A stretch of 62,750 bases of DNA, counting the filler, from Asterionella formosa (Eukaryota): NCBI GenBank assembly GCA_002256025.1. It is 15 parts of 15 records of this genome, joined end to end, with 100 filler letters (N's around TTAATTAATTAA, not from the genome) between each part and the next. Parts side by side here need not be neighbours in the genome. Positions count along the whole stretch, not along the records: positions 33,557 to 37,645 come from NKIB01013721.1; 14 more parts are not named here. The stretch is one strand, 5' to 3'. The notes beneath the pieces are model-generated. The model was not told the DNA's origin. It ran no database searches and saw only the letters and a list, made by a program, of their open reading frames with translations. The position numbers and the translations under genes are program-made. Shown piece after piece: positions 4,099-56,358 of this stretch. How positions within the stretch are numbered: the stretch's first letter is position 1; each line of letters opens with the position of its first letter.

Positions 4099-4198
4099 NN
4101 NNNNNNNNNNNNNNNNNNNNNNNNNNNNNNNNNNNNNNNNNNTTAATTAATTAANNNNNNNNNNNNNNNNNNNNNNNNNNNNNNNNNNNNNNNNNNNN
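4099..4198. other. Artificial scaffold-joining linker, first of 14 (others: 8297-8396, 12494-12593, 16689-16788, 20883-20982, 25075-25174, 29267-29366, 33457-33556, 37646-37745, 41834-41933, 46019-46118, 50204-50303, 54388-54487, 58570-58669)
   Basis: Each is 44 N + TTAATTAATTAA (stops in all six frames) + 44 N. The sequences between them run from 4098 down to 4081 bp without ever increasing. Confidence 0.98.
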
Positions 4199-6535
4199 CT
4201 CATGCCTAGATTAATTTCATTGGCAGCCACTTTTTCTATCACTGCCTCAGACATCATCAAATTCAATAGATGTCGTCTGTATCTGCAGGTGCTCACTCTG
4301 TCCGACATTGTCGACAGTACAGGCAACACCATTGATAAGGACTTTTGGAACAGATACAAAAACAATAGAGTCTTCAATCTCTCCTGGCCCAAACAAACCC
4401 GCCCTGGCCCCACCAGCTGGACAATTTGGAGACGCCTACTTTCACACCTCTTCACCATCAAATCTCGCTCCCCTCACCTTCGCCCTCAAAGCTGTCTCCT
4501 CAAATGGCTTCCCACTGGACCCTCTCACCAACACTGGCCGACATATTTGCATCCATCATCTTCTACCTTCTATTGTCGCCTCCCCTCTGATCCTTCCCTC
4601 TTCTCCCCTTATCGTCGGAACAATCGGCTCCGCTTCACACCCACTCCAAATAACCTTACCTCCACTCTTCCCTCTTCCGCCATTCCAATTTCGGTCTCTT
4701 CCTGGCTCCCCTTCCCGCAAACTCTATCCCACCATATTCGAATTCTCCCCTCCCTTCTCCCTGAATCACATCTCCCACCAACCTTCTCCACCTACCTTTC
4801 ATCTCTCTCTTCTTATGACAATTATTATATCGGCCAGGTTACCTTCCCGCCCGATATTCTACCACTCCTCCAAGATATCAAAACCAATAATTTTGAAGTT
4901 GCCACTGATGGATCAGTCCGCTCTCCCCATGGCTCTTTCTCATGGCTTATTCATGGCCGCTCCAGTGGCACCCAAATCTCTGGCTACAACACTACCACCT
5001 TCACCGCCACCCCTCTTTCTTCCTTCCGGACAGAGTGCTGCGGCTATCTTGGTGCAGTTCTTGCTCTTCGTGCTCTTCTTACATACCATGATCTTCTAGA
5101 TCCCCTCACTCCTTTCACTGCTAGAGCTCACATCGACAACCAGGCCCTAGTCAAGCGTCTGTCTCACCACCATCAACACTCAATTCGTCACAGTCTCCAC
5201 CCAGACTGGGACCTTATCCACTCAGCCACGAAGGTTCTGGCATCTATCCCGGTCGATCTCCAGGCGGTTCACATCAAAAGCCATCAAGATGACAGCAAAC
5301 CCTATGAAGCCTTAACTCTGCCTGCAAAACTCAATATCCAAGTTGATAGACTCACTCATTTAGCCTATCTCCGCTGCCCCCAGCGCTCTATTACTCCGCT
5401 TTCCCCTCAAGTCCCCGCTACCCTCCTTCTTCAGGGATCTCAAGTTACATCTCAGATGATCCCTACAACTCTGACAGCGTACTATAAGCCCAAACAATTC
5501 AAGTACTTCCAAACACGACACGGATGGACGCAGTCAATCTCTGACTCTATTGACTGGAAGTCTTCCACCAGTGCATACAAACACTTGTCATACGGACGCA
5601 GACTAGCAATGTTCAAGTTAATAAATGGACAATGGCCTACCAACAAAATCTTACATCGCCGTGGCAAAGCCCCGGCTTCCTTATGCCCACGCTGCTCCAA
5701 TGCCGTTGAGGACCACGATCACGTCCTAACCTGCTCAGCTTCTTGCCACTTTCGGGATACAAAGTGGACCGCTCTCTCTGACCATCTGAAATCCAAACTT
5801 TGCACTCCTCCCCATATTCTCCTTGCCCTAACCCATGGTCTCCAATCGTGGGAAAATGGTGACATTCCCCCACTTTGGCCTCTTCCAGATCCCTCCCCAG
5901 CCGACCCTCTTCTTTGGACGACCTATCAGGCATATGTCCAACAAACAGCTATAGGATGGAACCACCTCCTAAGGGGACATCTATCAGTTTCTTGGGCCCA
6001 TACCATGACAACCTATCACTCCATCAGAAATCCAGACCAACGCTATGAATCCTCTCTTTGGACAAGTCAACTAATCAACTCCTTATGCGCATATGCCATG
6101 GAACAGTGGAATAATCGCAATGATTTTGTCTATGGCGCCACTCTCCTTGCCACTAATGAACGCCGAATCACATTGCTTCGAACACAGACAACTACAGCTT
6201 ACTCAAACCAGATCTCCGTCCCAGCTGATGAACGAGGACATATATTTGGCCTTCCTCTCTCTCAACGCTTACTTCATTCCCCATCGGCACTGACGGCCTG
6301 GCTGGCAATCTATCGTGCGGGTCAACTACGCCTCACATCCCAAAAACGTCAAGACAAACGCCGCCAGAACACAATCCGAAAATTTCTTATCCATCGCGCG
6401 ACCCCTCGCCGTCCCTCTTCACCTGTCTAAGTCCATCTAATCGAACCGGGCGCTTCGCGCCCCGGTGCGACCCAACGAACTCCACACTTTAGTCGAGGCT
6501 CGATAACGCGTACTAAAAAATTTAGTTACCATGTA
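4199..6535 (+). mobile_element. 3' part of a non-LTR retrotransposon with RNase H and a CCHC zinc motif (Ambal-like diatom LINE); ORF 4202-6430
   Basis: RNase H motifs ATDGSV, SSFRTE, IDNQ, DWD, HIKSHQD and LNIQVD; zinc motif CPRC..EDHDHVLTC; uninterrupted 742-aa ORF; strong C/T bias on the sense strand. Confidence 0.88.
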
Positions 6536-11990: not shown

Positions 11991-12593
11991 TCATTTTGCT
12001 CGAGATAGGCAAAAGTGAAAATCGAAAAGCCGAACAACGTTTTTTTGAAATGTAGTTGCCAATTTAAAATTAACTTAATTTATATTATACTTAGATCTAT
12101 AGCTTTTTTTCATGGCGCACATTAGGGCAGCTGAGAGGGAGAAAATTGTACCGGTAGGAGTCGAACTTGCCCCGTAGAAATTTTAACAATCGCCGCAATT
12201 ATTTTCAAGCAGAGTACAGTACCAGGAAAGAACTACCTATGTAGATGGAGCACAGTATAGAATACTGGTTTAATACTTACATGCCGGGTACCTGGGTACC
12301 GTTATTTGTTGAGGCAGATTGCTATTTTGGTAAAATGCAGCCGTCATCATAATCACCGCATATTGATGTGTCAAGTTTTGATTGGCGGGAGCAGTTCGTT
12401 CTGAAAACGAGGTGGCTAATCCTAGTACGTATCGTCCAGACGTTTTACACACTCAGCATCGTCAATGCCGAGCAGGTATAATGACGTCGTATANNNNNNN
12501 NNNNNNNNNNNNNNNNNNNNNNNNNNNNNNNNNNNNNTTAATTAATTAANNNNNNNNNNNNNNNNNNNNNNNNNNNNNNNNNNNNNNNNNNNN

Positions 12594-15002
12594 TATCTTT
12601 GACTCTGCTCCATGCAATATAGAGACTCACACAAGAAACAACAACAACAAAGGCACAGCAAATCAGCCAAAGAAATGGCTCACTTGGTGGTATTCGGTTC
12701 AGCTCAAAAATTAAAAGAAGACTGGTGGCTGTGACGATCGTAGCGTGGCCCGACGGATAAGACATTTGTGCATCCTGTAATTCTCGAGGATCAGTTTCTT
12801 CACATTTCTTGGTATCTAAATTATAACGCGACCTTTCATATGCGTGAGGCCTGGGTCGACCAAAGTATAACTTGAGTACATTTATGACAATCACAATCAC
12901 ACCCAGTACATGAAAATAAATACGAATGCCCACATGCTCATCGCCATTGGGTCCGTAGTTTGTTCCATGCCAGAGTAAGAATGCTGCAACAATCAAGACA
13001 AAAAAAAGCAACTTCCAGTTTGGAACTCTCTCTTTTTTGATGTGTTTGTGGTCAAAACTCTCAAATAATTTCTCCTCTCCCTCTGATATATCAATTGGAA
13101 TTTCCTTGCATCCGATGCATAGTCGACAAAGCAAATTCATCATCTCTGAAAAAACCAACATCAAAACAAAGAATAAAAAGCTTGCAACAGCATCAATGGC
13201 AGAATCCGAGCACAACCAAAAAGGGATGAAAGGCTTGTTGACGATAGTCTGTAATATATATTCTGAAGAGAAAAAACGACAACAACATTCGGCTGTTACC
13301 GTGGTTGCCGCAAAGGCACAAATGGCACAAACTGTCCCTATCAATCCAATGATTTTTGCATTTGTATCCATCTTGACAAAAGGGGGACTAGTGACATAAT
13401 CTCCTTCCAGATCATCGTCCTCGGATTCTTTGCTTTTATTAACGCGGGCCCGAATTTTGCAACTGACTGAGTTTGACCCAACTGCAATGACAATCATTTT
13501 GCCACTTCCTTGAATTGTCGATTTTCCACTCAAAACTACATCTCCAGGATGTTTAGCAATGAGCTTACTCTCCCCCGTCAAGGTACTTTCATCCACTTTC
13601 AAACCTGCCATGAACAAAAAGCTTGCAACAGCATCAATGGCAGAATCCGAGCACAACCAAAAAGGGATGAAAGGCTTGTTGACGATAGTCTGTACTATAT
13701 ATACCGAGATGACGAAGCGACGACAACATTCAGCTGTTATCGTGGTTGCCGCAAAGGCACAAATGGCACAAACCGTCCCGATCAATCCAATGATTTTTGC
13801 AATTGTATCCATCTTGACAAAAGGGGGACTATTGACATAATCTCCTTCCAGATTATCGTCCTCGGATTCTTTGCTTTTATTAACGTGGGCCCGAATTTTG
13901 CAACTGTGTTGGCAATAGGACACTTCGGAAGTTTGAATGCCCGTCTTGGGTGATGACTTGAGAACACGAGAGGCCAAGGCCGTAGCCGGAAGTTCCGCCG
14001 TCTTGTCGTTGGATTCGTCCTCCCGCAGCTGGACGCATAGCTGCAAGACATTCTGAATCATGGTTTGTTCTTTGGTTGGCGCTTCTTCGTCGACTGCAAG
14101 AGCGTGCGTCCCAGTCTGAGCTCCTTCCATGAGGTCACATAGGGCAGTGGGAGTCCGCTCATTGGCCCAGACGGACAGGGGCTGGGGACCTTTCAGAGAA
14201 AAGGCTAGCTTCCCCGTGCAAGTCCCCCAGTCGCCCAGACTGCTGCTGATACTTGCATCGACTTGCGCGGCAAAGCACCCTTGGCGGGGTGTCACATGCG
14301 AGTTGTTCCGATCGAATGCAAAGTCCACGGGAGGTTGCTCGAACGTTGGGCCGTTTGCAGAGGCGATGGTCATTGTGTAAGAGCGCTCGACGTGTTGGCG
14401 ATAGGACACTTCGGAGGTTTGAATGCCCGTCTCGGGTGATGACTTGAGAACAAGAGAGGCCAAGGCCTTAGCCGGAACTTCCGCAGTCTTGTCGTTGGAT
14501 TCGTCCTCCCGCAGCTGGACGCACAGTTGGACGCACAGCTGGACGCATAGCTGCAAGACATTCTGAATCATGGTTTGTTCTTTGGTGGGCGCTTCTTCGT
14601 CGACTGCAAGAACGTGCGTCCCAGTCAGAACTTTTGTGTTTCCACGCGCTCCGCCCCTTTCTTTCTTGACTTGGTCGTACACCTGCACCTGGACAGTGAC
14701 AATCAAGGGTTTGCCAAGCTGAATATCGATGACGAATACAGACTTCCAATTGGGGCTGAGAGTACTTGCGATACTGAAACAAAGACGGCAAAGGCAGAGA
14801 GTGAACCGAGTTACACGGAGATGCAGAGGGTCAACGAAGGTTTCAATTCATATACTCACGTTTCAGTCGTTCCGATGACATCGGGCTTCGTTCCTGCCTG
14901 TGTAGTTGATACATCACGAGTCACTACAGCATAGGGATCTGAAGTGCCGCAACTGGTTGGATTCTTAAGATTGAAAGCGTGAACTGACAGCTCGATTTTC
15001 AT
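12594..15002 (-). CDS. Mosaic gene: C2 domain + duplicated segments + P-type Ca2+-ATPase fragments + PAP2 phosphatase (exons 15002-14860, 14773-<12594)
   Basis: A GTGAGT..TTTCAG intron at 14774-14859 joins C2 motifs (LKN..SDPYAVV..IGTTET/IASTLSPNW) in frame to the 722-aa ORF. Actuator motif VDESTLTGES..GSGKMIVIAVG. PAP2 motifs KLYFGRPRP, PSGH and SRV. 3' end lost at the scaffold edge. Confidence 0.8.
13172..13906. repeat. Direct duplication B (~13172-13465 and ~13613-13906)
   Basis: Near-identical ~290-bp copies encoding SCKIRA..SPPFVKMD..IGLIGTVCAICAF..VASFLF. Confidence 0.9.
13907..14626. repeat. Direct duplication A (~13907-14116 and ~14392-14626)
   Basis: Near-identical copies encoding GTHxLAVDEEAPTKEQ..GIQTSEVSY. 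One copy has a 12-nt unit (LCVQ) three times. Confidence 0.9.
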
Positions 15003-21785: not shown

Positions 21786-22930
21786 TGTTGAAATGGTTCG
21801 TACTCCTTCCCGCGGGCCGGGTCTCTCTTCACGTAGACTCTTACGTGCTCGTGGTACTACCTAGTAGTACCACTTACTTTCTCTCTTGTCGCTGCTTCTA
21901 GCCTTCCTGCTAGATAGACTAATTGACCTTCCTATCAATTAACACACTGTTTCCTCGGTTGATAATCTAAACTCAAATTAAATTATAAGCTAAACTAAAT
22001 GTTTCCTTTCCATGCATCTTTGCTTCCCACAAAGTCGTTCTAAGACTCTCTTCGAGTTGTCACTTAACATTTCCATAGAAATGTTCAATCTTTGATTTTG
22101 TTAGACAGCTGATTGACGTGGCAATGCAATATTCGACTCGTTTGATTACAATCGAGTCCACAATCCTTGTGACTCAGGCTAATATTCTTGACATCCTCCC
22201 CATTGCCACGCTCAAGAGGCTGCAACATCGTTCCACTCTGAACTGGTTGGGACAATCTCATGTGAATCTGTTCCTTCACGTTCTTAGTCATAATGTCTGC
22301 AATATCATCTTCCTTGATAACCTTTTTCATATATTCCACTGCACTTGGAGTCCCACATGTAATACCGTCATCCACGTAATTTTCAAGTAGACCATCAATT
22401 TGTCCATCCTTGTTCTGGTGCATAAATAACATAGGGTCGATCTTGCTCTTCGTCATACCTAGTTTATCAGTGACACATTTCGCAAACGTCCTGGACCAGC
22501 ATTGTGGAGCTTGTACTATCCTGTACATATGCTTCACAAGCTTGCAAACATGTGTATCAGAATCGACTCCAATCAAGCCTTGAGGGGGCTCAATATAAAT
22601 GTCCTCATCGACGTCAGCATTTAGGAATGCTGCTTCCACATCAATAGCCTCCGTTCGCCAACTGTTGTACATCGTCACTACTAGTACTGTTTTGATTGTC
22701 GCATCGCTTGCAACTGGAGCAAATGTCTCAGTAAAATCGACACCTGGCCTTGTAAATGGTCTTCCCGGTTAACACATCTTTTTTAATTCGAAACACCCAC
22801 CACGTTTTTAGTGTGGTTCACTTCTTAACAGTTTCACGCTTGACAACTTTCCACACTCCTCTGCTTCGACTGGACGTTTTCATATTCTTTGTTGATCGCC
22901 TTGATCCACTCTTTCTTGTCTGGTCTTGCC
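21786..22930 (-). mobile_element. Internally deleted Ty1/Copia element: RT remnant, PPT (22194-22207) and 3' LTR (21786-22193)
   Basis: ETFAPVA, IDVEAAFLN, VQAPQCW and YVDD are joined directly to the RNase H tail ADIMTK. PPT GGCAATGGGGAGGA is followed by TGTCAAG...TTTCAACA. Confidence 0.9.
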
Positions 22931-25174: not shown

Positions 25175-28100
25175 GTCTTGACTACACTTATTCTCTATAA
25201 TCATTCAATTGGTGATGACAGAGCCAAGGCCATTACAGAGGCTCTCAAGGTCAATACTGTCTTGACCTTGACTAGACTTGATCTCGATCATAATTCAATT
25301 GGTGTTGACGGAGCCAAGGCCATTGCAGATGCTCTCAAGGCCAATACTGTCTTGACTACACTCAATCTTGGAGATAACTCAATTGGTAATGACAGAGCCA
25401 AGGCCATTGCAGAGGCTCTCAAGGTCAATACTGTCTTGACTAAACTTGGTCTCCGGTATAATTCAATTGATGATAGCTTACTTAAAAAAATTCAAAGAAC
25501 AGTTGAGATAAGAAGCAAGAACTTTCTCAAACCGGAGAACATTGATGATATTGTTTTTAATGTTTCAGGGGTCTAGCAGCAGCCCTGATCTGGGGGGAAA
25601 CACCCCATATCAGGGTGGATGATATTGAACCCCCTGTTGAAAGCTTGTCCTGAAGCTGCAAAGGTGCAAGATCGCCATGGAAACACTCTGTTGCACCTTG
25701 GAATCGAAGGAGGGGCCAGTGTGGTGGTTATCAAGGTCCTTTTGGATGCCTGTCCTGATGTCATGATGATGAAAGACAACAAGGGCTACACTCCACTGCA
25801 CCTTGGCATGAAAGTCCGGGCTCCAGTGGAAATTATAAATGCCCTTTTGGAAGCCTGTCCTGAAGCCGTGACTATAGAAGCCAACGATGGTGAGACTCCT
25901 CTTGACTGTGGTCTAGGAGGGGAATAGCCAGTATCACTTGTATCCATCCAAACTTTTGTGGACAAATGTCCTTATGCCATTAAGTCCATGAAAATGCCCT
26001 TTATTCCACTTCATTTGGCAATTTTTCGAGGTGAAAAAGCTCCAGAGATCAAGCAAATCATAAAGGACAACCCGAATTCAGTTGCAAACTATGGCACTCC
26101 AAACCTCAGTCACCTCTTCTCCTCGCGATGCAAGAAGGAGATTATCCTGATTTTGAGGTCGTCTGTATTTTGATTAAGAAAAACCCAAATGCGACTAACA
26201 CTCATGATAAAGAAACGAGCTATAATCCATTTGAATATTGTGTTTCCAGGCTCCTTCAATCGATAAAGAAATATGCAACCCTTGATGTTGGTGATGACCA
26301 GCGGTCTTCCAAACAGTACGAGTTACAAAAGAAACTGTCAAATCCTATTGAAATTTGGTATAAGGTTTTGCGGCTATTGAGCAATTGTGCATGCTAAACG
26401 CACCCCAAGCTGAGAAAGTTCCAGAGAGGCGGAGAATTTTCTTTGTTCCAGAGCCGCTGGGCTTTTCTTTTGGGTGCTCGCCACCAATGAATTTGATCGA
26501 AGCAGGACTCTCCCATGCCTCGATTTGAATCAAGAACCAATAACTAACTGGACCGTTTTGGAAATCTTGGTGGATCTTGGAACAAAAGATGCGACCATAA
26601 TATTCTTCCAGATAGTGGAACAGCTGAGAGGGTCCGAAGAACAGGATCAGCTGGAAATCTCCATTAATTATTATAGCGCAACAAAAGTAGCATCATTTCT
26701 GTCCATTGCTCAAGTTAAAAAAGAGACATGGCAAAAGGTTGCCAATAGGGCAAAGTTGTCCAAGCTTCCCAAGCTCAAAGAGTGGGGTGATAAATACGGA
26801 AGGTTTCTTGGAAAATATCAATTTGAGGAGGAGAAGCATTTCTCAGGTACCTGTATGGTTATGTTTGGCACTGAATTGGTCGTTGTACCTGGAGCCACGC
26901 AATTGACCGGCGTAGCATTCAAGCTCTTTACAGAAAGGCCTGCATTCCTGCGCGAATTGGCAAAGCGGAACAAAATCATGAGCATTCATGGTGCAGAATT
27001 TTTTTTAATTGCCGTGAGGGCTGCATATACGGACTGCATGGAAAGGTTGGATGAATATGGTCCTCTGGGTATTGAGATTCAACTGAACCAGACAGTCAAA
27101 TGAAAAAAATTAAACCTGAATTCATCCATCTCTAGTAATGGATTGTTGTGGGAACAGGAATGACCTCTTTGATATTATATCGCATCAAAACATTGCAGGC
27201 AATAATGACATTTTCATGGTGCGTTTCATTGCAATCCAAATTGCTAAGTGCCTTCAGTTACTAAATGAAGAGTGTAAGGTTATGTACGGAGATGTGAAGG
27301 CTCGAAATTTTGTGTCTGGTAGCGAGGGTTTTGGATATGCTGCAATTGATCTTGATAATGCGGCATTAATTGACAAAGAAAATGCTGGTCAGAAGCGAAC
27401 AAGCTCTGGCATGAGTACCAGATGCAAAAGAAGGAGCAGGGTGCTGTAGTCGTTAAAGCCAGTCCCTAATATGACATGTGGTGCTTTGGAGCCCTTCTAT
27501 ATAATCTCTGCACTGGTCGTCAACTTTTTGAAGTGGATTCGCGTGAAGAAGTATTGCTGGACGAGCTTAAGAAAATAAAAGATTGGATTGACCAAGTTTG
27601 TGAAGAAAAGGTCGAAACATTTTTGCCAAAAATCAAAGACTGGACTTTTTTGAAAACTCTGCATAAAGGATTGCTGAAGAGGGATCCAAACGAGCGCTAT
27701 CATTGGTGGGGGGATATTATTAGTAAGCTTGAGAGAGATCCAGGAAAAGGCTATCACTGTTGAATTGATAATTTTAGTGAAGGTGAAGGTGATATTAATA
27801 AAAAAAATTTCACCTCAATGCAAGTGATTGCAACTGAAGTGAAACAAATAAATCGTGGAGTGCAAGGTCTGTCAACTGAAGTGAAACAAATAAATCATGG
27901 AGTTCAGGGTTTGCAAGGTTTGCCAACTGAAGTGAAACAAATAAATCTTGGAGTGCAAGATTTAAAAAGTGAAGTGACACAACTAAATCAACAAGGCCAG
28001 GCCATGTTCTCTTATTTGAAAGCTAAAATACCACAAATAATGAAGACTCTTCGTACTATCGATGCTGAATTAAAGGAGAGCTGTCCCAGAATTGTTTATA

Positions 28101-33556: not shown

Positions 33557-34480
33557 AGAGGGAGAGACGATCGCTTACAATGGATCGACAGCGATCGATT
33601 GATAGAGAAAGTGAGTTTTAGAGTGAAAGAATTAGGGATACTATTGCTAGCTACTGGGAAAGACCTACTTGCGTATGTTCTAGTACAGGGTAACCGGTAC
33701 CCTGTACTAACAATTCTTCCCTTTCGACTCCTACTGACAAAATGTTGGTACGATAATAATACTTCCTGACTCAAAACGTCCTTTATTTTTGCACATGGAA
33801 ATTTGATGGATATTAGTCCATTCCCAGCGGGATTTTTGTGGAAGTTATTGCTGTTAGCGTTGCTAAAAGATCACTACGTCTGATCCACATATCGCGATAA
33901 AAATTTGTCATACCAATAAAGCGTCGTAGCTATCTACGTGTGGCTGGAATGGCGATATTTTGAATTGCCTCGATTTTATTGGTCATTGGTTGAACACCCT
34001 GACGAGTTATCCAAAAACCAAGATACTCAATTTCGATAGCACAGAATGTCGACTTGTCTGCATTTATCCGAAGGCCCGCTTCGGATATTCTTTGCAGTAC
34101 AATTCGTACATTCTGTTGGTGATCGTGAAACGATCCCGAGGTAATACCCAGAAGGTCGTCTAAGTACGTACGTACGGGCCTGTCATTAAGTTTGACATTT
34201 TTTCTTGAAAAATGTCCGGGGCACAGTTGATTCCCAATGGTAATCGCTTATATCTATACTTGCCCCAAGCGAAAACTATAGTACATAAGTTTTGTGCCTC
34301 TTTATCTAAACGAATTGTATAGAATCCCATGTTAAGGTCTAATGCCGGGAAACGGTTTTCGTTTGATATTTTTGCATTAAGCCGGCGAAAGTCCAAAACT
34401 ACTACGCGGACAGTACCTGCTTTTTTTTGCTATAATGAATGTAGGCGCGGCATGTGCCGAGTCCGGAGCATGATTTAAAA
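33557..34480 (-). mobile_element. Deleted Ty3/Gypsy element: RT remnant (~33810-34470), PPT (~33714-33726) and partial LTR (33557-33712)
   Basis: AAPTFII, DFRRLN, LDLNMGFY, YKRLPLGI..APDIFQ, YLDDL, YLGF and LRRFIGMTNFYR, with a frameshift and a stop. GAAAGGGAAGAA precedes TGTTAG. Confidence 0.88.
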
Positions 34481-35221
34481 AAAAGCCTGATTAAAAAAAA
34501 GCATGATGACGTCGGCAAATGCTAATTTCCACCTAATGTACTCCTTGGCGAAGGTTTTCACCTTCTGCTCGAACGTGCCTGTGACGAGTGAAAGCTATTT
34601 ATTAGACAAGACTAAGCTATGTTTGCATGGCTGGTCACCGTGATGTCGGTCTCGCTGCTGCTCAAGTGCTTGCATGGGGGAAAGAGTCCGTCTTCGGTGC
34701 TTGATGGATTCTGGAAAGAACCTTTGTTGGGATCATTGAATCTAACTTATCACAAGAAAGGAACCTCGATTATCGAATGGCCTGATGTGAGAAGCGGCCT
34801 AACAAATCATCGTCAATGACCACATTGAAACCACACAAATACGACTATGTAGTCTGCACTCCGGTATTTGCCTCAAGCTGTGCCGTGTTGTACCTCTTCA
34901 TCAACACGGGCATTGGTTGTTCCCTACCGGTAAGAGAAAATTACGTGTGAGGTAAGAGGGTACAAGATACCCAAAACACCCTATGGTACCCCCAGGTACC
35001 ATTTGTACTGGTACCTGGAGCAATATGTACAAGGTATGTACTCCTTGCCATCATGAACAACAGCCGAGCGCTGGCTGGGAGTTCCGGGAAAGTCCGAATA
35101 CTATTGCGAACATTTGTCCACACATGCATACCGTATGTAACATAAACCATACAAAACTGTAGACTACCATGGTGCTAGCCTCTATGCTCATCAGTTTGCA
35201 GAAGAAGCAAAGGAGGAAGAG

Positions 35222-35563
35222 ATGGAAGCCATTGAATCGGAGGATTTGGCAGGAGCAATGCTCCCTCAAGATGCCAAGAAAAAGTATGTCGTTGGATCCA
35301 GCAAAGAAACTTCGTTTGCAGAGGAGGTGAAAGTGGAAGACCAACAGAAGAAAGCCGCAGTTGTCGTGCCTCCTCAAGATGAAAACGATTCATCTAATAT
35401 TGTTATTCCAGCAGTCTTATCATCAACAGCAGCAGCTCTGCCTCGAGATGTTGTGGCAGCACCATCACAACAACACGTTCCTGGCGCTTTTGCAGTCAGA
35501 GGACCAGGAGACATTCCACAGGATGACTCCTTCTTGCATGTCGACACTGCAATTATATCTTAA
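35222..35563 (+). pseudogene. N-terminal fragment of a PGAF-motif protein
   Basis: A disordered stretch with VPGAFAVRGPG, a motif I recall from N-termini of diatom single-pass receptor-like proteins. It stops before any transmembrane segment. Confidence 0.45.
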
Positions 35564-35604: not shown

Positions 35605-36408
35605 TCACTTATTGTTCTTCCTCCGACATGTTGAGCGTTTTGGCTGTTTTTCCATCTTCATGCTGTCAAGTTCTTCCTGCAGCTTTGCTATCACATCACT
35701 TAAAGCTGTAATTTGTTCTAAAGCTTTCCTTTCTCTTTCCATTACCTCCTTAATGTCCTGAGTATTCCTCCAAACCTCATCCTTGTAAGCTTCACGATGA
35801 TCTGCATATATTAGACGACCATCGCTTTGAGGAGGGGCCATAATCTTGGCAAAATCTTTTTTAAACGCAACCTTGGCACCAGCAACACCAATTGAATTAT
35901 TAGAGAGATCAAGTATAGTCAAGACAGTATTGACATTGAGAGCCTTTGCAATGGCCTTGGCTCCGTCAACACCAATTGAATTAAAAGAGAGATCAAGTAT
36001 AGTCAAGACAGTATTGTCCTTCAGAGCCTCTGCAATGGCCTTGGCTCCGTCATCATCAATTGAATTCCATTCGAGATCAAGTGTAGTCAAGACAGTATTG
36101 ACCTTGAGAGCCTCTGCAATGGCCTTGGCTCCATCAACACCAATTGAAATATTACGGAGACCAAGTGTATTCAAGACAGTATTGACCTTGAGAGCTTCTG
36201 CAATGACCTTGGCTGCATCAACACCAATTGAATTATTACGGAGTTCAAGTGTAGTCAAGACAGTATTGACCTTGAGAGCTTCTGCAATGACCTTGGCTCC
36301 GTCATCATCAATTGAATTTTTAGAGAGAGAATTAAAAGAGAGATCAAGTTCAGTCAAACTTGGATCATTCGCTTTCAACCGTTTGACATCTTCTTCCCAT
36401 CTAGGCAT
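35605..36408 (-). CDS. RI-like (NLRC3-like) leucine-rich repeat protein with C-terminal coiled coil
   Basis: Cap RLKANDPSLTELDL, six 28-aa/84-nt repeats and an EALEQITALSDVIAKLQEEL-type coil. Open ORF from the ATG at 36408. Confidence 0.88.
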   Translation of the reverse strand: MPRWEEDVKRLKANDPSLTELDLSFNSLSKNSIDDDGAKVIAEALKVNTVLTTLELRNNSIGVDAAKVIAEALKVNTVLNTLGLRNISIGVDGAKAIAEALKVNTVLTTLDLEWNSIDDDGAKAIAEALKDNTVLTILDLSFNSIGVDGAKAIAKALNVNTVLTILDLSNNSIGVAGAKVAFKKDFAKIMAPPQSDGRLIYADHREAYKDEVWRNTQDIKEVMERERKALEQITALSDVIAKLQEELDSMKMEKQPKRSTCRRKNNK

Positions 36409-36559
36409 TGTCAATGTCGTCGTCTTGAATGTAATGGAAGTTTTCTATTGTGATTGACGAGCGACTTCTTTTCTGGTTCGAGTGAAAAGTATTTTTTGTG
36501 TTAAAACTCCTTTTCTTGTGCTGCCAAAATAGTTTCTCTTTTTGCTGCAATTTATTCTA

Positions 36560-37075
36560 CAGTCCAGACAGTATTGACCTTGTGGATACAGTTCTTGTTT
36601 AGATTAACAAGTCCTTCAATTTTTGTTAATAAATTAATAAATTATCATCATGAATTGGATGTCACTTGAGAAAAAGTGTCGTCAAGACTTTACTGTTGTT
36701 GAGTGCCTCAGCTATGATGGCCTTGGTACCCTCATTACCAATTGAATTACCATTGAGATATAGTAGCATACTGAGATCAAGTGCAGTCAAGATGGTATTG
36801 ACCGTGAGGAGGGCCTCTGCAATGGCCTTGGCATGATCAACAACAATAGATTTACCTCCAAGATAAAAAAAGTGTGGTCAAGACAGCATTGACCAAGATG
36901 GCCAGCAATGCAATTTCCTTGGCGCCATCATCACCAATTGAATTATAACTGAGACTAAGAAGTTCAGTCAAACTTGGATCATTTTCTTTCAACCATTTGA
37001 CACATCTTTCCAATTCTGTTACTGTTTTCCCTCCAGATGATAGTCAAATCATTGTCAATCTCATCTTGAATGAAA
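36560..37075 (-). pseudogene. Degenerate tandem paralogue of the LRR gene
   Basis: Same cap (LKENDPSLTEL) and 3-4 decayed 84-nt units with indels. Confidence 0.8.
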
Positions 37076-38603
37076 TTGAAGTTGTTTATAATTTTTTTAG
37101 CAACTTGCTCCCCATCCCTGTACAAAAGTGTCCAGTGTTTCTGACTTGGTATATAATAACCAGGTTATAAATACTGCCTCACTAAAATAATGCATAACTG
37201 TGGTTATTTGTCATCAAGTCTGACTTGGTGGCATCAGACTTTGGACTCAAGTCCAGACTTAGAATAAATAACTAGAGGTTATTATTATATCCAAACCATG
37301 CGTCAGACTTCATTTTGTGTGGCAAGTCTGGACGTGTTAAAATACCAACCCTCACCTCTCTTTTATATCATGTACAGTTACGACACATTATTATCGGTAT
37401 GTTATGTACATATGTGGAGTATACCTGGTACATGGGTACCAGGTAGTACCGGCATATTTTGTTGTTGGACAGAAAATAATACCCGTAGTGACAGCTAGTG
37501 CACTAGCAATCAAGTAGTACCGTTTACACAGGCAGTGATCATGAATGTTTGTAATTTCGCTGTTATCATCATCTTGTTACAACCAAAACCAAACTCTCGT
37601 TCTTCTTTGCCTGTCTCATCCCTTCTTCATTTGAATTGAATTCGTNNNNNNNNNNNNNNNNNNNNNNNNNNNNNNNNNNNNNNNNNNNNTTAATTAATTA
37701 ANNNNNNNNNNNNNNNNNNNNNNNNNNNNNNNNNNNNNNNNNNNNTATGCAATGAGATACAAACATATGAAAGAATCAACAGAAACAACAAGAAACTCAA
37801 GGAGCTTGACGAAAATGAATGGAATGCAACAATATGCATCATTCAATTGAAGAGCGCATTTGTCGATGTACTGGCATCGGAATTTGGTCTGCACTGGCAC
37901 TTTGAGCTACACAATAACTACAGCTTATGAAATGAGCTACAAACACATGCATGATAAGTGTATGAGGCTGGGTGGTGTGAGTGGGTTGATTATCCTATGA
38001 GTTGCGCCTCCAGCGCTGCACGAAGGTCTCCCTACAAGCAAATTGAACCAAGCCACGTCCACTTGTACCGGCATACAAGAAGGCATGGAGCATGCACCGA
38101 GAAGGGGACTGTTCAGGAAATTCACAAACTAACTATCATTGTGCCAATCTATTCTCCATTTTGATAATTTCCATCGTTTTTTCTTTCCGTACTGTCCCTT
38201 TGGTTGGATCATTGCATCTTTTTATTTATAGCCGATGCCGACAACGGTTGCCCTTCTCTGTAGATCGGTCAGACACGCCGTAGCTTCACATACTCAACAT
38301 GTGTCAGACCAGCTGAAGGATGAAGTGGTTGCAAATTTGTGGTATCATCATAATATGTGCAGCTTGGCCTGTAGGTTTTCCATAATAATGGATCTAGAAA
38401 CTCTTGAATCCTTCATAACTGCTAATAAATTCAGTTTTAATTGATGCCGAAAAATTCGTCCTATGTTGCACTTAGCTAAAAATTACATGAAGCCTAGAAT
38501 ATTACTTAAAATTACCAAAGGAAGCGCAGCATGAAGATAGCTGACGCCAGAATCGCCCCTAAATAATATTTCTTTGACTCTCCCTATACTATATGTATAC
38601 AAC

Positions 38604-53723: not shown

Positions 53724-54487
53724 TACATACATGAAAATCCTTTAAAAAATTGAGGTATTTCCTTGTATCTTGAGCTGTTGCACCATTTCCAAGATTTTGT
53801 TCATTCAAGTTTCGCATCTATTTGTACATTCGATTGAAATAAATATCTAACATACATTTTCAAGCAAGCCACTGCAGATTTAATGATGTTAGTACTACTG
53901 AGCAAACAACATCCAAAACAATTTTAAGCAGCAATTTAAAGCTTTGTTGTCAATATTAATGCAAAAAATTTAATATTGAACGATTATACCTCGCATATGT
54001 TAGGCTAGAAACATGTACAATATAGCAATAGTTCATTTTCAATTTTTGTTGAGATATTTGTTCGAATAAGTTCGCCATGGTTGAGACAAGATGTTTATTC
54101 ATTGACCTACATTCATACATAAGGCAGTACAAATCAAATTCACTTACCTGTATGTATGTCAACCATTTATAATATTCTGGTGTATATATAGTAGACAGAA
54201 CAAGTCCTGCAGAGAATCTCTCTTAGAGTCTACTTAGCTGTACTATCCCCAATGCAACCAACACCAAAATGAAATACCTCAACGAGAAGGTTCTTGCTAG
54301 TGAAGGGTGCTGCAAGCCACCCAAAAATAGTGCTAGGGTCGTCTGAATGACACCTCAAAAAGTTGAGCACTTTATGTGGCTACTCCTNNNNNNNNNNNNN
54401 NNNNNNNNNNNNNNNNNNNNNNNNNNNNNNNTTAATTAATTAANNNNNNNNNNNNNNNNNNNNNNNNNNNNNNNNNNNNNNNNNNNN

Positions 54488-56358
54488 ATGTTCATAGTCC
54501 CACGTCAGTGTAAGGCCAATGTATCGAGAGCCAGTCCAATCAGTTGTGAGTCGGTATTTGGTACGTAAAGTGGTGAGGAGACGGTCCACGTCACTACGTT
54601 TGGTGTAACGTACACCGAAATCATCAACAACAAGCGTAAACATGAGATCACTGGTGGTATCCATCCATAGGCCAGGGGTGACTGGGCAGGGGAGGTAATG
54701 ATGTGGTAGCAAGAACTGAGCAAGTTGATCATTGGCAAGTTTACCAGCTTGAGGCAGCCCATACATGCCACAACGGATTTCGGCATAGATGTGCCCATCA
54801 ATGATTTTTGGAGCTAGGTTGTAGAGGGTTTGAATGTGTGGGGGAATCATCCATACAGGGATGCGCACGTATTCATACTCGGCAGGTGCAAGATGACTTT
54901 CCAGATAAATATCAGATAAATCCAGAGTCATGAAGCGGCCACCGGGGGTACTGATGGTGCTGTTGAACAAACATTTTGCAGTAGTGAGATCAGCAGTCTT
55001 GGTGCTGTCATTGCCAGTGTAAATGACACGATCACCCCCAGCAGTCCAACGAACGCATTGGGGAATGGTTTTTTCAGGGCGATCGGCACACACAATGCGG
55101 ATGTAAGTGGCGCGTTTGTGTGAGGGCATTTCATGCTTATGAATGAAAAAACAGCAATTAGTACCCGTTGGCATGTCAGAATGGGGTCCCAAACCCTGAA
55201 ATAACCGGCCAATTTCTAAGCCGTTGGCAGTGGCCCACAGGGGAGCAGTGCTGCAAGTCAATAATTCTCGATAGCCAGCAATTTTGCCATTGTCAGGGTT
55301 GATAGCGGTGCCATGGAAACAAAAATTAGTGGCCAGGGGAGTAGCACTGGTTTGAGGAGGGGCGGAGAGAGCACAGTTGGCAAGCAAAGATTGGGTGTGG
55401 GGTTGGCTGGCAGGTGGTGCATCACTTGGTGTGGTTTTATGTTGATGACGGCTCTTGGGCACAGTGGTAGTGTCATAAGTGTCCAAAGGGGAAGGTGGTA
55501 GGGGACTGGGCAGCACAACAGCATCGCGATAGGTGCAAGGGGGTGCTGGAATGAGCTCGCAGCCACTGGCAGGAGGGGACCTAGGGGTAGGGGTAGGGTT
55601 ACCGGCGAGGTGAGGGTTAGGGTTTGGGGTAGGGTTAACAACACTCGGGTCGGTAGGGGTAGGGTTAGGGTTAGGGTTAAGCACCCTCAGTGGTTGGGCA
55701 GTGCCAGCGAGGGCTGGAGAGACCAGGAAAGGTGTACAGGCATCAGGATCAGGGAGAAGGGGGATGGTGGATGCTGTGGGTGTACTGGGCACCCTCAGTG
55801 ATGGAATGGGGTGATGCAGGAGGGGAGCGATGGGTAGTTGGGTGAGCTCAGGCGGTGAGAGAATTTCAAGGAGCTGCTGGAGAGCAGCTTTGTGGGTTGC
55901 AGTGAGTGGGGCAACGGGAGACTGAGTGGTGGGATGTAACAAGGCATAGGCAATGTCCTGCAAACTGGTTGTGATGAGGTCAGTGGATGAATTACAGGGT
56001 AGGTGGACTTTGGTTGGAAACCACGAGACAGTATTGCAGATTCTGATAGAAAGTGTTAGGGCCGACATACCAACCATCGAGAGCATGCGGAGCCCATGTT
56101 GTGCGGTGTTGGGGCTTGGCATGAACAAGGACCCGACAGCCAGGTGGAGCAAGGGGGACACGGTTGTAATCATATGTTCCATTGACCTGTGCCCAAGCAG
56201 ACAGTTTGGGGTTGATGCATGAGCCACGGAGGAGATTAAGAGTAAGTTCAGCTTGAACTAATAGTTGGTCCCACAAGTGGAGAGGAAAGTCATCGTCAAC
56301 ACTGCATAGACCGGCAATGAAATGGTGTTGAAAGGTCCGAATTGCACGTTCAGCAGCA
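54488..56358 (-). mobile_element. Ty1/Copia (CoDi-like) pol fragment: integrase C-terminal half, Pro-rich linker, RT
   Basis: AERAIRTF..FPLHLWDQLL.QAELTLNLLR, GWYVGP, a frameshift, then RVIY..KTADL, MYGLPQAG, LVVDDFGV and YIGLTL. Confidence 0.92.

Follow-up and report, generated by a model that had tools for sequence, protein, structure and literature searches.

The closest described counterparts of the LRR cassettes analysed here are the repeats of high internal conservation (HIC) of fungi, rather than the lamprey VLRs that the original prediction had named. VLRs are built of 24-aa extracellular LRRs and arise by somatic insertion of flanking cassettes into an incomplete germline gene, and DGRs combine adenine-specific variation, set against an invariant template repeat, with a dedicated reverse transcriptase. 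For the NWD/HNWD genes of Podospora (het-d, het-e and het-r), the available portions of the published accounts describe repeats that are 80–100% identical within and between genes and evolve in concert, that are gained, lost and exchanged, and that each carry four hypervariable positions on the binding surface; the fungal NLR repeats of this kind include ANK and TPR types as well (PMC4986451, PMC13449251). In the available text on Ectocarpus, the LRR-ROCO and LRR-kinase genes show positive selection on the concave LRR face, shuffling, and high rates of birth and death (Zambounis et al. 2012, PMC3341825).

The cassettes of the diatom Asterionella formosa resembled the fungal HIC repeats in the identity of their 84-nt units (84–85% in DNA for whole units and 88–93% for the framework, pairwise across the genome, with a protein framework identity of 0.84), and in the small number of hypervariable positions on their surface, which are under diversifying selection according to home-made, uncalibrated estimators. 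The framework, expected to be almost fixed, was near-fixed, not fixed. The differences from the HNWD genes lay in the repeat type, here LRRs, of which none was found in those fungal NLRs within the available portions of the accounts (PMC4986451, PMC13449251); in number, >110 cassettes compared to about ten genes; in the NACHT/NB-ARC domain, found in 0 of 51 diatom ORFs by a scan that covered the open frames up to introns or contig ends; and in the location of the cassette, which was N-terminal, internal or C-terminal relative to ARM, kinase, ankyrin or membrane parts. With Ectocarpus the cassettes share stramenopile LRR arrays with a diversified concave face and apparent shuffling, but there, according to the available text, the repeat is an exon, whereas here the units are contiguous, intronless and of the 28-aa RI class (PMC3341825). 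Roc-COR, which would mark an LRR-ROCO protein, had no match in the diatom ORFs scanned. None of the VLR features (24-aa repeats, extracellular location, incomplete germline gene) was seen in the cassettes. The likeness to lamprey and hagfish VLRs was confined to modular units and to diversity concentrated on the concave LRR face (in part from the available text of PMC3341825). On the features tested, the cassettes work like fungal HIC repeats and fall outside the NLR, ROCO and DGR systems.

The cassette family and its member in the window

The window, a 62,750-nt stretch of A. formosa DNA, consists of ~4.1-kb scaffolds linked by runs of N, one of which, NKIB01013721.1, carries an LRR cassette gene on its minus strand (Table 1). 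A bZIP-like gene on another scaffold of the window gave an Atlas lead to the diatoms among stramenopiles. Ten cores occurred at the predicted positions and with the predicted variable residues, and their two places turned out to be separate small scaffolds. The six minus-strand cores of the window gene start at 36357, 36258, 36174, 36090, 36006 and 35922 and encode, in this order, SF, RN, RN, EW, SF and SN at positions x7x8 and D, E, G, D, D and D at x5, and the plus-strand cores of the second cassette, at 25178, 25268, 25352 and 25436, encode YN, DH, GD and RY at x7x8 and I, D, N and G at x5. TRF reported a period of 84 at 35871–36328 (5.5 copies, 87%) and also at 25175–25474. The seven gapless units of the window were 91% identical over the 72 framework bases and 56% identical over the 12 variable bases.

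Table 1. Cassette-related features of the window, with positions counted along the whole stretch.
Feature	Position	Strand	Remarks
Second cassette, 3′ end at scaffold start	25175–25576	+	Four cores, C-cap, then stop
Interrupted ankyrin and kinase pieces	25589–27763	+	Behind second cassette
LRR cassette gene	36408–35605	−	Intronless 267-aa ORF: N-cap, six 28-aa RI/NLRC3-type LRRs, coiled-coil tail
Coiled-coil tail	35605–35870	−	Common to C-terminal end of longer module in further family members (L114, L064, L015, L082)
Six-unit LRR array	35890–36357	−	Hypervariable codons x3, x5, x7, x8
15-nt in-frame remnant of second core	36316–36330	−	Behind core 1; core spacing 99, not 84
N-cap helix	36358–36408	−	Conserved across cassettes; 114 matches genome-wide
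Family 5′ leader	36409–36539	−	Common to many cassettes
Copy of divergent frozen LRR subfamily and its upstream DNA	36542–37645	−	13 copies, 91–95% identical

The window gene product matched Pfam LRR_6 (E 1.7e-27), and its 28-aa repeat LxxLxLxxN and strand-helix fold were those of RI-like LRRs; NOD2, ribonuclease inhibitor, NLRP and axonemal RI-type LRR proteins were among the top matches in sequence and fold searches, and the Pfam search found neither NB-ARC/NACHT nor Roc/COR in this gene. An AlphaFold model of the protein (pLDDT 86.7) showed three-residue strands at x3–x5 in every repeat, with x3 and x5 on the strand and x7–x8 just past it. From established LRR structure, rather than from a computation of our own, we take all four positions to lie on the concave binding side. 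The gene has no family C-cap, and its final half LRR helix runs straight into the terminal coiled coil, indicating that C-cap, linker and middle domain were deleted. The 15-nt core remnant is probably the footprint of an out-of-register crossover within the variable core. Judged by its sequence, the window gene is an internally deleted, rearranged (recombinant) member of a large family, and as such it is of little weight by itself.

To place this gene in its family, the genome was searched with a 26-nt framework word, which had 213 exact matches compared to 0 for a reversed control, excluding chance, and with the N-cap, which had 114 matches at ≤2 mismatches (100 of them listed), about 13 belonging to a divergent subfamily. 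Both counts bear out the predicted large family with many near-identical copies. The set analysed comprised 117 stretches (125 taken, 9 dropped as contained in larger ones, and the second window scaffold added) with 547 cores and 371 gapless 84-nt units in 99 loci, 339 of the units being distinct and 336 of these stop-free; in this fragmented assembly of 15,436 contigs, alleles, paralogues and redundant contigs are indistinguishable within such counts. The cassettes share an intronless layout of leader, N-cap, 2–13 RI-type 28-aa LRRs and C-cap, and differ in their partner domains. Of 118 arrays, 77 closed with a C-cap recognised by pattern matching and 20 ran to a contig end, and among the links of ≤180 nt, 371 of 402 were exactly 84 nt of open frame. 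Long non-LRR parts were present in 64 ORFs, 51 of which were scanned for domains at E ≤ 1e-4: armadillo repeats were detected in about 10, a kinase domain or its start in 5 and ankyrin in 2, and none of the 51 matched NB-ARC, NACHT, Roc-COR or TIR. The ORFs end at introns or contig ends, so that later domains may be missed. A hydrophobic segment lay before the cassette in six ORFs and near the C-terminus in two.

Several members have unusual architectures. The cassettes of L032, L045, L065, L071, L073 and L074 are fused behind a hydrophobic segment and remnants of another, LTGTLPTE-like LRR type, with the family leader and start preceding; such a sandwich insertion might bring the cassette to the outside of the cell. 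Two or three complete tandem cassettes, 10–22 units in total, share one ORF in L019 (contig C14780), L033, L119 and L124. A recurring C-terminal helical domain of ~350 aa, without a match in the Pfam search, follows a Thr/Ser-rich linker in L015, L019, L034, L063, L064, L082 and L114.

The LRR copy upstream of the window gene had been considered a decayed paralogue. Instead, it belongs to a separate multi-copy subfamily that is ~70% identical to standard units and shows hardly any variation from copy to copy, its x7x8 residues SY, GG and NG being kept in 11, 10 and 11 of 11 copies aligned by eye. One extra T at about 36865 shifts the frame in the window copy alone among these 11, and three further copies, when translated, had an open frame across three units. 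A role of this paralogue as a reservoir of variable codons was not supported, on account of its distance from standard units and its near-invariance. The copy is cut at 36542 and joined there to a standard cassette leader, a junction bridged without differences by an X1 DNA contig and an X8 RNA contig from two separate studies; the apparent shared edge at 36539–36542 is a junction peculiar to this locus. Inspection of the leader alignments by eye revealed no transposon-like sharp ends, terminal repeats or target duplications for either the cassette or the frozen subfamily.

Family units were present in the poly(A) RNA contigs of X10 and X8, a statement that holds at the level of the family. 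At 36556–36647 the depth was 0 in X10 and 2.7 in X8 RNA contigs, summed contig depths being neither a copy number nor an expression rank. The runs containing the window stretch were mostly from algal cultures and freshwater samples; X19–X24 contributed a small share or none and were left out. The 40,745 X1 records on 2.7 kb are assembled contigs, in which errors, paralogues and variants are inseparable. Among the listed contigs of these runs, none bridged the junction near 35870 with 31 letters on each side and none spanned the window array.

Variable codons and apparent exchange of units

Amino-acid entropy over the 336 stop-free units reached 2.0, 2.8, 3.4 and 3.4 bits at x3, x5, x7 and x8, compared to 0.2–1.2 bits at 23 of the other 24 codons and 2.1 bits at the D/V codon after IG. 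The expected focus on the strand and the following loop was confirmed in this respect, and had to be widened to x3 (mostly T, K, E, S or R) and to the D/V codon. The third bases of the same codons were largely constant, with A in 320 units at x3, T in 326 at x5 and T in 285 at x8 (85–97%); x7 was less fixed, with T in 188 and another base in 148. Most of the proposed multi-base substitution could be broken down into single steps, just 8 variable-site codon alleles being without a commoner neighbour one step away. Small differences between close copies were mostly single bases, and the genuine multi-base differences between them were block replacements. The four variable codons formed 258 combinations in 336 units compared to 307 expected under independence, their normalised excess mutual information was 0.03–0.12, and the distance at variable sites was 5.1–5.7 of 12 bases for frameworks differing by 0 or by 11 alike. 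Linkage among the four codons, and between them and the framework, is weak.

The predicted excess of amino-acid change at the variable codons was recovered with home-made, uncalibrated estimators, pairwise dN and dS being 0.87 and 0.27 at the four codons and 0.07 and 0.18 in the framework. A PAC likelihood, likewise home-made and uncalibrated, which treats single sites without recombination and assumes no tree, gave omega values of 12 at x7, 8 at x8, 4 at x5 and 3 at x3, and also of 2–3 at framework codons 3, 14, 17 and 27; with a free synonymous rate the values were 4.7 for x7/x8, 3.3 for x3/x5, 2.1 for the four pooled and 1.0 for the framework. The ratio of non-synonymous to synonymous common alleles was 29:3 at variable codons compared to 25:17 in the framework (Fisher p = 0.003), and no such difference was present among rare alleles. 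Rare synonymous alleles were ~3-fold commoner at the variable codons (18.6 compared to 6.5 per site, mostly at x7), an excess that a locally higher mutation rate would also yield. Synonymous heterozygosity was at the framework level at x3, x5 and x8 (0.06, 0.007 and 0.04) and higher at x7 (0.23). Rare framework alleles numbered 5.6 missense, 6.5 synonymous and 0.44 stop per site, and missense and synonymous framework differences in close pairs stood at 39:15; the near equality of rare missense and synonymous alleles points to weak purifying selection on the framework, and many copies may drift. The strong depletion of stops, together with irregular links that were mostly in-frame (26 compared to 5 frameshifting), indicated that most copies are kept translatable.

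Units did not cluster by gene, in line with the original prediction. Their mean identity was 84.0% within a locus and 84.8% between subfamilies, and the nearest unit (n = 351) lay in another subfamily for 289, in the own locus for 39 and in both equally for 23, a count that the larger foreign pool biases. Copies with 91–100% identical flanks carried differing arrays. Block replacement, unit loss or mosaics were seen in L005/L010/L012/L107, L016/L029 and L022/L024/L067, including block swaps between near-identical copies in L005/L010/L107, L016/L029 and L022/L067, and in L040/L050/L066 differing arrays went with a flank that was near-identical only upstream. Some copies had arrays that were the same or nearly so (L022/23/25/26, L044/L060, L067/L070 and L042/L054). 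Repeat-number variation and exchange between genes are described here as seen in the assembly, where chimeric joins could contribute. Taken together, the variation was not evenly spread along the units, dN/dS at the variable codons was not at or below 1, and units were not grouped strictly by gene or position; the framework, at its synonymous sites as well, is homogenised inside single genes and from gene to gene, and the four codons keep many common amino-acid alleles.

Origin and possible role of the variation

The reading that we consider probable is that of a large cassette family whose framework evolves in concert, whose binding face is under diversifying selection and which has a role in recognition. 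Its evolutionary part can be put forward with good confidence: ordinary point mutation would supply new residues at the variable codons, diversifying (frequency-dependent) selection on the binding face would retain them, and unequal crossing-over and ectopic gene conversion among the >110 cassettes would recombine the variants in unit-sized or smaller pieces. The same recombination would alter unit number, link cassettes to new partners and homogenise the framework, and would leave many broken or rearranged copies, the window gene included. For the function, a part on which we regard the chances as even, the cassettes would be mostly cytosolic binding modules fused to various partners, might sense fast-changing non-self proteins of parasites, viruses or bacteria, and might signal through their ARM, ankyrin or IRAK/Pelle-like kinase partners. 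The axonemal RI-type LRR proteins among the top fold matches speak against this role.

The near-neutral rare missense changes of the framework, the many copies that are truncated, rearranged or frameshifted, the TE fragments close by, and the general tolerance of LRR surface positions would also be expected if a selfish or hitch-hiking gene-fragment repeat had proliferated without adaptive value, its surface codons varying from lack of constraint. Relaxed constraint, however, gives dN equal to dS, whereas dN at the variable codons was 3–5 times dS, variation was far greater at the first and second bases of these codons than at the third, stops and frameshifts were depleted, and the leader alignments contained neither terminal repeats nor shared sharp ends, and non-adaptive proliferation is in our judgement unlikely. 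The shuffling could, on the other hand, be mainly an artefact, with fewer true arrays and chimeric joins made through the ~55-nt constant stretch. Such an effect is documented for fungal HIC repeats, of which short-read assemblies can create chimeras according to the available text (10.1101/2025.01.13.632504), and the present assembly has 15,436 contigs and identical arrays on four of them. Assembly chimeras may inflate the apparent shuffling, and because they are possible and the window array is unspanned, the order of units is a less secure result than the findings at codon level. In contrast, misjoins cannot produce the variation of codons, the fixity of third bases or the weak linkage within 18 nt, all of which fit inside one read; 339 of 371 units were distinct, and the junction of frozen copy and leader was confirmed in two studies, which makes an origin of the shuffling mainly in misassembly very improbable.

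Two further explanations assign the diversity to dedicated machinery. Template-directed or site-targeted hypermutation, by DGR-like adenine mutagenesis or a local mutator, would fit the predominance of NNT codons among x5 and x8 alleles, as from an AAT template, the raised rare synonymous alleles at x7 and the reverse-transcriptase fragment on the scaffold of the window gene. Against it, a non-A third base was found in just 4.8% at x3, 6.5% at codon 27 and 2.1% at codon 9, x3 alleles are NNA, NNG alleles are common and many x7 codons have a third base other than T, the synonymous heterozygosity of x3, x5 and x8 is not above that of the framework, the frozen subfamily keeps its variable residues, and the reverse-transcriptase piece is presumably a broken fragment of LTR-retrotransposon type. 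Targeted mutation of the DGR kind, one of the mechanisms originally proposed, was rejected, as the synonymous adenines inside or beside the core were changed in just 2–7%, with the exception of a common 24% polymorphism at codon 4, and many alleles are not NNT; of all the explanations weighed here, hypermutation has the remotest prospects. Programmed or mitotic diversification, in which directed micro-conversion or cassette assembly rewrites the cores in clonal lineages into an anticipatory, VLR-like repertoire, is unlikely too. It agrees with the near absence of linkage over 6–15 nt, with out-of-register remnants within cores, with block replacements between copies whose flanks are otherwise 96–100% identical, and with an idea put forward for Ectocarpus in the available text of PMC3341825. 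However, no separate library of non-coding units was seen in the 117 stretches examined, there is neither a recombination signal nor an intron between units, several copy pairs share identical or nearly identical arrays, and ordinary ectopic recombination accounts for the same traces. The widest form of this idea, a repertoire rewritten clonally by ectopic micro-conversion among the >110 cassettes, with the 28-aa module perhaps a sensor shared by protists, is no less speculative; if clonal rewriting were true, a bloom grown from one cell would vary in parasite recognition.

Selection and ordinary recombination acting on a cassette family remain our preferred reading. The cassettes would provide sequence-defined candidates for the molecular basis of genotype-specific resistance to parasites and viruses in freshwater phytoplankton, and would carry the HIC strategy of fungi over to LRR cassettes that are intronless and have no detected NLR ATPase. 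A similar arrangement was apparent outside diatoms. Many of the best 120 of 903 protein matches (146–468 aa) were proteins of Capsaspora, Eukaryota sp. GEM-RC1 and Chrysochromulina, and none of these 120 came from a named diatom, which is not evidence of absence. These expanded 'NOD3/NLRC3-like' LRR_6 families share the fold and the 28-aa period with the cassettes and differ in N-cap and partner domains, the comparison being one of proteins alone. The same four positions were the most variable in Capsaspora (126 units), GEM-RC1 (61) and Chrysochromulina (16), the equivalent of the D/V position tying with x3 in GEM-RC1; framework identity was 0.72, 0.65 and 0.84, respectively, compared to 0.08–0.20 at variable sites, and the Chrysochromulina unit consensus equals that of the diatom at 25 of 28 residues. 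This resemblance suggests that a 28-aa hypervariable module recurs in unrelated protists and, if true, the module would be a hypervariable sensor common to lineages as distant as filastereans, haptophytes and diatoms. Atlas protein clusters returned generic LRR_6 clusters alone. The literature searched, mostly open-access articles without their supplements, contained no description of such a family in diatoms and nothing on hypervariable Capsaspora LRRs; the cross-taxon HIC survey of PMC13449251, of which a part was available, may list such proteins.

Further elements of the window

The four units of the second cassette span 25178–25468, with a 6-nt duplication in one link, and the DNA downstream is 99% identical to L123. 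A stop separates this cassette from the ankyrin and kinase pieces behind it, and LRR and ankyrin parts form a single open frame in L003 and L067. Behind the kinase pieces, a 42-nt tandem repeat at 27819–27990 encodes a coiled coil.

Broken reverse-transcriptase fragments (RVT_1, E 5.8e-10) lie at 33930–34429 (−) on the scaffold of the window gene, where their motifs are those that we take for an LTR-retrotransposon type; related DNA directly adjoins the N-cap in L083 and L085. Convergent with the LRR gene is a 140-aa ORF at 35141–35563 (+) with a PGAFAV motif, which had no match in the Pfam search and is covered by RNA contigs, and L071, L073 and L074 have a similar PGAF motif ahead of their membrane segment. 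Elsewhere in the window, long ORFs at 4151–6430 (+), 22085–22768 (−) and 54440–56257 (−) resemble, by eye, pieces of non-LTR or copia-type retrotransposons, and a 769-aa mosaic ORF at 12538–14847 (−) contains duplicated internal blocks and, again judged by eye, P-type-ATPase-like and PAP2-like pieces.
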